Shown piece after piece: positions 9,782 to 11,210 of a stretch of DNA of 64,000 nt (the stretch's first letter is position 1; the number at the start of each line of letters is the position of its first letter). A program made the translations under genes and the position numbers. This DNA comes from a virus (lineage: Duplodnaviria; Heunggongvirae; Uroviricota; Caudoviricetes): the IMG/VR virus record IMGVR_UViG_3300008114_000011. One strand, given 5' to 3'. The notes below the pieces were generated by a model. The model saw only the letters and a list, made by a program, of their open reading frames with translations. It was not told the DNA's origin and made no database searches.

Positions 9782-9809
9782 GTTTGAGTAGTCAATTAAC
9801 TACTCAAAC
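9782..9809. terminator. hairpin between convergent genes
   Basis: GTTTGAGTAGT-caatta-ACTACTCAAAC, 11-bp perfect stem preceded by an A-run; overlaps 3' end of the - strand LRR gene. Confidence 0.5.
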
Positions 9810-10344
9810 TAATATTATTTCCTACATAAAAAAGATAAGGAACACCACTTGGACTAGTTCCACTAACTGTCGGCGCACCATCCAAAGATGTCAATTTATT
9901 ATCTCTACAATCAAAAACATAAACCTTTTTTGGTGAACCTTCTAAAGATGTCAATTCATTTTTACTACAATCAAATCTTTCCACACCAATTTGTGGTGAT
10001 CCAACTAAAGTTGTTAATTGATTATTACTACAATTGAAATCCCCATTAATTTCTTTTGGAGCACCTTCTAAGGATGTTAATTGATTGTTACTACAATTGA
10101 AATCACCATTGACTTTATTAAACTTAACCGGTAACTTAGTTAGCTTTAAACCAGATAAATCAACATGACAATAAACATCAACAGATAAATCATCATTAAC
10201 TCTAAACCTTTTACCAATAGAGCTATCACCAATTAAATATAAATTACAAAGTCCAATCACTTTATTTTTAGCGGACTTTAACTTTTGTTCATCACTTTTT
10301 TCGAAGAAGTCAAAAAAACCTTCAAATGTTTTTAATTTTTTCAT
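9796..10344 (-). CDS. leucine-rich-repeat protein with MKYLK-type head
   Basis: Repeats GDFNCSNNQLTSLEGAP / FDCSKNELTSLEGSP / FDCRDNKLTSLDGAP; N-term MKKLKTFEGF. Confidence 0.75.
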   Translation of the reverse strand: MKKLKTFEGFFDFFEKSDEQKLKSAKNKVIGLCNLYLIGDSSIGKRFRVNDDLSVDVYCHVDLSGLKLTKLPVKFNKVNGDFNCSNNQLTSLEGAPKEINGDFNCSNNQLTTLVGSPQIGVERFDCSKNELTSLEGSPKKVYVFDCRDNKLTSLDGAPTVSGTSPSGVPYLFYVGNNISLSS

Positions 10345-10374
10345 TTCATTTATTTTTTTAAATATAATAATAAA

Positions 10375-10914
10375 TTATTTAAACTCTATAACAAACTTAA
10401 AATCATGTTTAAGTCCCACTATTTCACTTTCTGAAATTTTCTTTGAATATCTAAGTGAATTTACAGAGAAGTTTTCAGGTTTTAACCAATCTTGTTCACT
10501 ATATGTAAACATATAATAAGTAACCGAATAACCACTATCAGTTATTTTATTAGCAATTTCAAATAACTTCTTTTTATCAACCTTATCTAAAACTACATAG
10601 ATTGGTAAGTTTAATTTTTTTATATTCTTAGTTTTAATATAATCTGGATCATTTTTATAAAGGTATTCAATTGAATTTCCCATACTCAATAAATGAGCAC
10701 CTTTATCATTTGAATTATCAAAACTAGACTTTGATGTACTAACTAAATCACCTTCTTCAAAATTCAATTTAATCAATTTAACGCTTGGGTGGTTAAATGT
10801 AAACCTTCCTGGTGATGAATAGATAATAGCATCTGGTTTTATATTATTAAGTTCTTTTACTAAAGAAACTAAACTATCATTTGATAGTGACTCATATGTT
10901 TGTAAATATCTCAT
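10375..10914 (-). CDS. MKYLK-head family protein
   Basis: 179 aa; N-term MRYLQTYESL. Confidence 0.6.
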   Translation of the reverse strand: MRYLQTYESLSNDSLVSLVKELNNIKPDAIIYSSPGRFTFNHPSVKLIKLNFEEGDLVSTSKSSFDNSNDKGAHLLSMGNSIEYLYKNDPDYIKTKNIKKLNLPIYVVLDKVDKKKLFEIANKITDSGYSVTYYMFTYSEQDWLKPENFSVNSLRYSKKISESEIVGLKHDFKFVIEFK

Positions 10915-10948
10915 TATTCTTCATCATTATTTTCTGGTATCATATTAC
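10911..10948. repeat. 38-nt exact repeat (partner 16931..16968)
   Basis: tcattattcttcatcattattttctggtatcatattac at both sites; here it spans the gene junction 10914. Confidence 0.85.
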
Positions 10949-11210
10949 CTAAAGCATTAAAAATCTGAATACCATCAAAACCTTCAGTTCTTAATACATG
11001 ATAGAACTCAGCAAACTCTTGAGTTGAAAAATCTCTATTACCAAACTCAGCTTTAAATCTTTCGATAATTTCGGATGTTTTATCATCATTGATTACATTT
11101 TTCTTTCTTAAAAAATTGTCTAACTCTTTAGTTCTATCTGAACGTCTTTCATTTTCTTGATATGTTCCTCTATCACGTCCATAATTTTCAAATGTTTTAA
11201 TATTCTTCAT
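10914..11210 (-). CDS. MKYLK-head family protein
   Basis: 98 aa; N-term MKNIKTFENY. Confidence 0.6.
   Translation of the reverse strand: MKNIKTFENYGRDRGTYQENERRSDRTKELDNFLRKKNVINDDKTSEIIERFKAEFGNRDFSTQEFAEFYHVLRTEGFDGIQIFNALGNMIPENNDEE

Follow-up and report, generated by a model that had tools for sequence, protein, structure and literature searches.

Introduction

In bacteriophage T4, the diverse internal proteins have only a capsid-targeting sequence (CTS) in common; this sequence is by itself enough to direct GFP into the core, and it is cut off by gp21 (PMC3012670, PMC9958956). In giant phages (SPN3US, phiKZ-like), many different proteins are packed into the head and ejected, and N-terminal propeptides are cut by the prohead protease (PMC10052503, PMC7411985). 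The present analysis concerns a 64,000-nt stretch of DNA from a virus of the Caudoviricetes (IMG/VR record IMGVR_UViG_3300008114_000011; this whole stretch is referred to as the window) and a short N-terminal peptide, here called the tag, shared by a set of its proteins. We read the tag as an extended T4-type CTS that marks a large cargo set, and give this reading a probability of about 0.6. The T4 CTS itself is textbook knowledge. The extended consensus, the clade in which it occurs and the size of the set are apparently new; no description of the extended consensus, of its occurrence in Bacteroidota phages or the Mahaphage clade, or of tagged sets this large was found in the literature.

An N-terminal tag on unrelated proteins of the window

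The core of the tag reads hydrophobic-K-x-aromatic-(E/Q/N)-x-F-(I/V)-x-E. In the window it takes the form LKxFExF[IV]xE, usually after three extra residues, M-K-x. The regular expression M[KR].[LI][KQ].[FY][ENK], applied to the 144 N-termini of the window and to 19,126 residues of internal sequence, matched nine of the N-termini (0.02 expected) and gave three internal matches. A position-specific scoring matrix (PSSM) covering motif residues 4-13, trained on other phages only and used with a threshold score of at least 7, recovered 13-14 of the ~144 genes, while ~0.3 were expected from internal windows. Most genes have the core starting at residue 4, and across all of them its start ranges over residues 1-8; internally it is nearly absent. 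Where its residues are replaced, the changes are conservative for the protein (L/I, F/Y, E/N/D). The enrichment detected by both the regular expression and the PSSM, in the window and in the related genome LR756502.1 (see below), rules out chance or composition as the source of the tag. Further tagged genes were present in the 10-kb flanks of the window. Directly upstream of it, three tandem paralogues (locus L129, 610-2297, - strand) start with M(R/K)IKNWKLFNES, a sub-variant of the tag.

The genes concerned are listed below and are named in the text by the position of their start codon. The promoter motif mentioned in the list is the element (A/T)ATATATA, usually TTTAATATATA, which is dealt with in a later section.

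16988-17560, - strand: 190-aa protein, N-terminus MKYLKLFENF, tag at 17531-17560; PSSM 22.7
33886-34317, - strand: 143-aa orphan, MKYLKLFEKF; PSSM 19.8; promoter-like TTTAATATATA 4 nt before the ATG
9796-10344, - strand: leucine-rich repeat (LRR) protein, 182 aa, MKKLKTFEGF; PSSM 16.2; LRR_4 domain; final gene of the operon running from 11210 to 9796, with no promoter directly upstream
62295-62906, - strand: Nudix hydrolase, 203 aa, MLKIKTYNQF; PSSM 13.9; NUDIX domain
10914-11210, - strand: 98-aa protein, MKNIKTFENY, first gene of its operon; PSSM 13.8; promoter motif 18 nt upstream
10375-10914, - strand: 179-aa orphan, MRYLQTYESL, operon-internal; PSSM 12.9; ATG overlapping the end of the upstream gene, promoter motif absent
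29276-29644, + strand: 122-aa protein, core from residue 7 (NIQSFEEFKE), paralogue of 28969; PSSM 12.1; promoter motif 20 nt upstream
35723-35884, + strand: small open reading frame (ORF), 53 aa, MRYLKLYEAY; PSSM 12.0; promoter motif 4 nt upstream
51549-51932, - strand: 127-aa protein, MKHLKKFNEN; PSSM 8.3; second in the operon starting at 53663, no promoter directly upstream
5660-5887, + strand: 75-aa protein, possible tag in the T4 register (MRTYEELVPEF), ELGI tail; PSSM 8.0-8.3, core at residue 1
28969-29217, + strand: 82-aa protein, core from residue 7 (HLKRFNESEE); PSSM 7.7; promoter motif 21 nt upstream
40518-41150, - strand: 210-aa protein, MKYLKSFKES; PSSM 7.1; promoter motif 4 nt upstream; homologue of 36% identity in LR756502.1
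60181-61158, - strand: P-loop protein, weak tag (MRYIKEFFNY), intein in Walker-A; PSSM 5.7; Intein_splicing and LAGLIDADG_3 domains
61155-62276, - strand: CxxC-repeat protein, 373 aa, weak tag in the T4 register (MRKYNQFILE); PSSM 5.0; promoter motif 4 nt upstream
4143-4403, + strand: 86-aa protein, weak tag (MKYIKNFKML); PSSM 4.4; promoter motif 4 nt upstream
4420-4692, + strand: weak tag (MKYLHRYNES); loose match to the regular expression, outside the top PSSM list
51948-53663, - strand: 571-aa protein with 12 CxxC motifs, MSNILRYDSF; tag unsupported, PSSM 0.4

An initial annotation of the window had listed about 16 proteins with a shared N-terminus. All 16 quoted N-terminal sequences proved correct letter for letter, as did the bodies described for some of them (LRR, Nudix, an intein inside the Walker-A motif, and two CxxC-repeat paralogues). 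Membership in the tagged set is solid for 11 of the 16 and weak for four (61158, 62276, 4143 and 4420); 53663 fails, with a PSSM score of 0.4. The further statement that almost every - strand gene is tagged went too far: enrichment on this strand is strong, but only ~10-12 of roughly 20 ORFs carry the tag, and it is missing from the block at 35916-39060 and from genes 59137-60168 and 63376-63954. Outside that list, 16004 and 9491 (both + strand) are borderline candidates, and the tag of 5660 is held with low confidence because no late-type promoter precedes this gene.

The protein of gene 17560, which has the highest score, matched nothing in Pfam or PHROG, and Foldseek against PDB returned no significant fold match. 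The LRR protein has tagged homologues of 42-50% identity in four IMG/VR loci (L018, L078, L100 and L093). The two proteins encoded at 51948-53663 and 61155-62276 are paralogues with C-terminal CxxC repeats, from a family represented 9-16 times in each of five huge uncultured phage (Mahaphage) genomes and once in Cellulophaga phage phi38:1 (gp037), where the N-terminal region is missing. The intein, with its LAGLIDADG domain, splits the Walker-A motif (GAPGIGK|C), so that the P-loop gene appears as two ORFs (59137-61158, - strand); its homologue in LR756502.1 (570044-570625) is uninterrupted.

Likeness to the T4 capsid-targeting sequence

According to the T4 record, ipII and ipIII start with MKTYQEFIAE, ipI with MKTFKEFTST and Alt with MELITELFDE. 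The initial annotation had given MKTYQEFIAE as the start of the T4 internal proteins and of Alt; this is right for ipII and ipIII, but Alt, as its first residues show, lacks this sequence. The alignment of M-K with M-K was not upheld either, since a shift of three residues fits better: the best alignment places T4 M-K-T-Y-Q-E-F-I-A-E on motif residues 4-13, L-K-x-F-E-x-F-(I/V)-x-E. Some examples of the tag from uncultured phages are MKIFKTFEEFIAE.

A PSSM built from the N-termini of uncultured phages, with no T4 sequences included, was used to scan T4 (106,815 windows of six-frame ORFs). The three internal proteins ipI, ipII and ipIII were all among the top five of the 2,432 Met-started T4 windows; the remaining two were gp61.1 (MKTFKEFIKED) and a spurious ORF. 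At the threshold of 7, six of the 256 T4 genes were tagged, three of them being the internal proteins, as against none of the 63 genes of phi38:1. By this measure, the tag is statistically indistinguishable from the T4 CTS at the sequence level. That the tag might be a general trait of Bacteroidota phages is ruled out by the absence of tagged genes in phi38:1, a non-T4-like Bacteroidota phage. T4 gp61.1 (NC_000866, 18966-19130), a 54-aa hypothetical protein, scored above all three internal proteins.

Tagged genes in related phages

Searching IMG/VR with a degenerate DNA pattern for the tag matched at least 120 loci. Among 117 distinct matches listed, 109 stand at the start of an ORF of 50 aa or more, and for 95 there is no earlier in-frame ATG; the contigs of the matches listed are of low GC content and 5 to 480 kb long. 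At the protein level, 197 of the 1,729 genes in the 123 loci listed carry the tag. A 42-nt consensus used in blastn against deposited phages returned mostly noise; a match in Melnitz was internal to a gene.

Homologues of 24 of the 144 window proteins, including the tagged Nudix protein (59% identity), were found in LR756502.1. This is a complete 642-kb genome, among the largest known phages, of the Mahaphage clade and predicted to infect Bacteroidetes (PMC7162821). It has 79 tagged genes out of 955 (~2 expected), which are clustered in islands; MKYLKxYKIFES, in which residue 7 is the first of the core, is a frequent sub-variant of the tag there. Behind the tag the proteins have little in common. 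The mean column identity in an alignment of 77 tagged LR756502.1 proteins was 5%, and only ~6 of the 77 have Pfam domains (two Nudix, SAM methyltransferase, SET, DHH and PQ-loop). In the window, the putative cargo comprises the LRR protein, the Nudix hydrolase, the intein-bearing P-loop protein and orphans. The tagged set includes no proteins of replication or transcription and no major structural proteins.

Conservation at the amino-acid level

The initial annotation had named a nucleotide-level translation-initiation signal, conserved regardless of reading frame, as the finding that would speak against a targeting peptide. This was checked with 97 tagged genes, none of them selected by DNA pattern, and no such signal was found. 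Codon choice in the motif was that of the gene bodies: Lys was encoded by AAA at 0.81 in the motif and 0.82 in the bodies, Ile by ATA at 0.42 and 0.43 and by ATT at 0.44 and 0.48, and Glu by GAA at 0.88 and 0.83. The background codon usage, together with the shifting distance of the core from the start codon, speaks strongly against an RNA-level signal. At the same time, MKYLKLFENF is unchanged in 24 orthologues of the 17560 protein whose identity falls to 40%, and in the Nudix family (367 homologues) the core IKKFNQFN is kept while the number of residues preceding it varies by 0-2. The tag is a peptide signal, conserved at the amino-acid level rather than at the nucleotide level.

Monomer models were obtained with AlphaFold2 (AF2). 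For the 17560 protein, the mean predicted local distance difference test (pLDDT) score was 79.5; residues 1-9 scored below 50, and the fold begins near residue 15. For the Nudix protein of gene 62906, the overall pLDDT was 86.8, the first 10 residues averaged 48, and the chain was unstructured before residue 15. In these models the tag is predicted to be unstructured ahead of two unrelated folds. Because the best-conserved segment of these proteins is also the one that AF2 leaves unstructured, it looks like a linear docking motif.

A promoter-like element ahead of many tagged genes

The element (A/T)ATATATA was found in the window at the following places.

17566-17573, - strand: example of the element, before tagged gene 17560
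4131-4138, + strand: copy before a tagged gene
11229-11236, - strand: copy before a tagged gene
28940-28947, + strand: copy before a tagged gene
29248-29255, + strand: copy before a tagged gene
34322-34329, - strand: copy before a tagged gene
35711-35718, + strand: copy before a tagged gene
41155-41162, - strand: copy before a tagged gene
62281-62288, - strand: copy before a tagged gene
62911-62918, - strand: copy before a tagged gene
53668-53675, - strand: copy before 53663, whose tag is unsupported

The element lies 4-5 nt or ~20 nt ahead of many tagged genes. Among the loci listed, ATATATA occurs no more than 30 nt upstream of 39% of the tagged genes but of only 16% of the other genes (p = 1e-12). 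The remaining 61% of tagged genes lack it within this distance, and 84 untagged genes carry it at the same 4-5 nt spacing. Operon-internal tagged genes of the window (10344, 10914 and 51932) have no such promoter. In related contigs, T4-type genes for the portal, protease, sheath and baseplate have this element in front of them; TTTAATATATA is for this reason best read, from its sequence context, as the late promoter of these phages. Tag and promoter are separate features that are frequently found together, and strict coupling of the two is ruled out by the operon-internal tagged genes and by the 61% without a promoter. In the window, two untagged genes for GIY-YIG-type endonucleases (46405-47193 and 53754-54587, + strand) have the element 4-5 nt from their ATG.

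Promoter/stem-loop cassettes shuffle gene bodies in T4-type phages, and the shared gene start could be the recombination scar of a mobile cassette made of a promoter and a gene start. Such a cassette would agree with the enrichment of the tag right behind TTTAATATATA, often 4-5 nt from the ATG, and with the grouping of tagged genes in variable islands. We nevertheless consider it very improbable. Promoterless and operon-internal genes are tagged, and an equal spacing of the promoter is seen in the 84 genes without the tag. In addition, the background frequencies of synonymous codons indicate that DNA is not what the tagged genes share, and a decapeptide that stays invariant while the bodies diverge to 40% identity points to purifying selection.

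Since the promoter-like element is only 4-5 nt from the ATG in a number of genes, the mRNAs of these genes may be leaderless. The window encodes an IF3 (58500-59033, + strand; IF3_N and IF3_C domains). The IF3 of Escherichia coli discriminates against leaderless mRNAs. One might suppose that the motif is an A/U-rich downstream element that (near-)leaderless late mRNAs require in a host without Shine-Dalgarno pairing; the short spacing seen in many tagged genes, the lack of a visible Shine-Dalgarno sequence upstream and the phage's own IF3 would all suit it. The evidence from the motif itself makes an initiation signal of this kind hardly probable: its codons are chosen as in the gene bodies, its substitutions are conservative for the protein and its core shifts relative to the ATG. 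Moreover, untagged genes (those for the GIY-YIG proteins and for a baseplate gp25-like protein) share the 4-5 nt arrangement, while operon-internal tagged genes lack it.

A tagged protein in the head module of relatives

In six IMG/VR loci (L033, L071, L062, L079, L073 and L058), a tagged ORF lies between the gene for a gp20-type portal and that for a Peptidase_S77 protein, which is followed by gp23. The tagged protein is ~113 aa long with an acidic C-terminus, and its gene stands where T4 has its prohead-core genes 67 and 68; no match to this small acidic core protein was found among deposited phages. The S77 domain, part of a ~700-aa protein in the six loci, was recognized with 42 bits, above threshold. 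In LR756502.1, tagged genes lie directly upstream of the portal gene (PF07230), and the genes for the protease-scaffold (225272-227371) and Gp23 (99.5 bits) follow; here the S77 match of the protease-scaffold reached only 20 bits, below threshold. T4-type prohead genes are present in the relatives L079, L033, L071, L058, LR756502.1 and L140. For the capsid protein of these loci, the nearest counterparts are those of the LR7565xx genomes, of Lak phages and of the Tenacibaculum phages PTm1 and pT24. The tag is missing from the portal, capsid and sheath proteins themselves in these loci, which rules out the tag as a mark of all late or structural genes.

Two proteins of PTm1 (L135; 12829-13518, - strand, and 28212-28433, + strand) start with (M)RKLYSVISENFIVE and MKKLYDHISENLVTE, which may represent a different shared N-terminal motif in this phage.

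Weighing the interpretation

In its N-terminal position, its likeness to the T4 sequence and the unrelated bodies that carry it, the tag agrees with a CTS system, and it is most likely an extended relative of the T4 CTS. The suggestion of the initial annotation that these proteins are capsid cargo is partly supported by the likeness to the CTS, by the position of a tagged gene in the head module of relatives and by conservation of the peptide; what had to be corrected are its use of Alt, its alignment and its list of members, several of which are weak. By analogy with the relatives, we infer that the genome from which the window derives encodes a T4-type head. Binding of tagged proteins to the scaffold, their encapsidation, cleavage and ejection would likewise follow the T4 example. 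Tagged proteins would be produced by late transcription, from TTTAATATATA promoters or within operons that have such promoters. The exposed, unstructured tag would dock each new protein onto the scaffolding core as it assembles on the portal, the scaffold in this clade being fused to the S77 prohead protease. The protein would then be enclosed as the gp23-type shell closes, the tag might be trimmed by the protease, and in the next round of infection the cargo would be ejected along with the DNA. An anti-defence role of the cargo, also proposed in the initial annotation, is speculation, with which the Nudix, LRR, SET and DHH domains fit loosely.

A number of observations weigh against this interpretation. 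As to the head, no portal, protease or capsid genes were found in the window and its 10-kb flanks, and none of the best 120 portal homologues lies on the 171,766-bp contig that carries window proteins. In PTm1, a T4-like phage of Bacteroidota, the exact motif was not found near the head genes. No cultured close relative was found among deposited phages, and packaging is a prediction made from sequence. As to processing, residues 11-25 are acid-rich and no universal cleavage site was seen; a T4-type [LIVM]-x-E site ending at residue 13 is present in 10% of tagged and 3% of other proteins. A few tagged + strand genes of the window (5660, 16004) have no late promoter, and an intein in one tagged member is awkward. 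The tagged proteins are net acidic on average (-0.035 per residue), in contrast to the T4 internal proteins, whose lysines contact the packaged DNA (PMC3012670). The proportion of tagged genes, ~8%, is far above the three or four of T4, and LR756502.1 has an awkward member in its tagged PQ-loop membrane protein. Finally, the sequence alone may not suffice for packaging, since gp61.1 has a CTS-like start and reports of its packaging in T4 are not known to us.

Alternatively, the tag could be a peptide signal with another destination or partner, such as a phage chaperone, ClpP (for timed degradation) or some other late assembly or compartment, its likeness to the CTS being that of a common short amphipathic peptide. 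Linear docking motifs of any kind would agree with a conserved tag that is unstructured in AF2 models and sits on unrelated bodies; ClpP is encoded 9 kb past the end of the window, and ~8% of the genes seem many for capsid cargo; acidic proteins, a PQ-loop membrane protein and gp61.1, with the sequence and no packaging report known, point the same way. We consider another destination unlikely, however, because it leaves unexplained both why the PSSM picks out the T4 internal proteins and why, in six loci, the tag is found on a small acidic protein encoded between the portal and the prohead protease.

The window, its host and neighbouring genes

The window has a GC content of 28%, small and tightly packed genes and one tRNA-Leu gene. 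Its proteins were found, identical, on freshwater metagenome contigs, the largest being 171,766 bp long. No DNA-level match to 12 kb of the window was obtained among deposited phages with megablast, nor did the 17560 protein match any deposited phage in tblastn. In IMG/VR, an exact 45-mer gave no match.

The 574-aa product of a gene at 56025-57749 (+ strand) starts like a signal peptide and has a C-terminal Por_Secre_tail (type IX secretion) domain. Many + strand genes are preceded by TATATTTG; elements of this type were seen upstream of the presumed early genes 7788, 13063, 18700, 23108, 24013 and 39153 (+ strand) and 38272 (- strand). We take TATATTTG to fit the Bacteroidota -7 promoter, TAnnTTTG; its class differs from that of TTTAATATATA at the tagged genes. 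Given the Por_Secre_tail protein and the likeness of TATATTTG to this promoter, the host is most likely a member of the Bacteroidota.

A family of small genes (1269-9247, 15110, 23729 and 44153-45411, + strand) encodes proteins that start with MK(V/A)ICI and end with R(D/E)xKLxELGI (the ELGI tail). The stop codon of these genes is overlapped by the ATG of the next gene, and some members have homologues in LR756502.1. A set of genes related to NAD or ADP-ribose (33173-33889, 47190-47963, 49882-51462 and 62295-62906) encodes a microbial PARG, a phosphoribosyltransferase-like protein, a nicotinamide phosphoribosyltransferase and the tagged Nudix protein. The gene for the ClpP-family protease (PF00574) is at 205-957 of locus L127, ~9 kb past the end of the window; genes for a formyltransferase, HU and an M50 peptidase are near it in the same phage genome.

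Implications and comparison with known systems

It is possible, and we propose it only tentatively, that Mahaphage-related phages of Bacteroidota address about one gene in 12 to the capsid and inject dozens of different proteins. Were this so, the few recognizable members of the injected arsenal would be Nudix, SET, SAM methyltransferase, DHH phosphoesterase and LRR proteins, the rest being orphans, and the cargo injected could exceed that of T4 in diversity by an order of magnitude. Provided that the tag acts as the CTS does in T4, the proteins that large and huge uncultured phages bring into the cell before gene expression can be predicted from it, and the whole 'ejectome' of such phages could be read from one tag of 10-13 residues. 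The injected proteins would then be prime candidates for anti-defence or takeover functions, and dozens of orphan genes per genome would acquire a first functional handle. The CTS principle would reach from the enterobacterial T-even phages to the clade with the largest known phage genomes, and the tag could be a portable one for engineered cargo in such capsids.

Like the tag described here, the T4 CTS is an N-terminal peptide of ~10 residues found on otherwise unrelated proteins and has the same residue pattern; T4 cargo is likewise diverse, with only the tag conserved (PMC3012670). Unlike in T4, three extra residues, M-K-x, usually precede the core, giving the shifted consensus LKxFExF, and in the relatives a single ~700-aa protein combines protease and scaffold. 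The number of tagged genes also differs, with at least 13 in the 64 kb of the window and 79 in the 642-kb genome, compared with three or four in T4.

The SPN3US and phiKZ-like phages belong to a different lineage. To our knowledge, their ejection proteins do not share a single N-terminal decapeptide and are recognized instead by cleavage motifs. The mobile promoter/stem-loop cassettes of T4-type phages resemble the tag in that gene starts in variable regions carry a conserved regulatory element; however, they are DNA-level elements upstream of genes, whereas here the peptide is conserved and the codons are free to vary. The cargo-loading peptides of encapsulins offer an analogy of principle only, there being no sequence similarity: an encapsulin cargo peptide is short, terminal and disordered on its own, and is enough to load unrelated cargo into a shell of the HK97 fold. 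Encapsulin peptides differ in being usually C-terminal, in binding the shell protein rather than a scaffold and in belonging to a cellular system.

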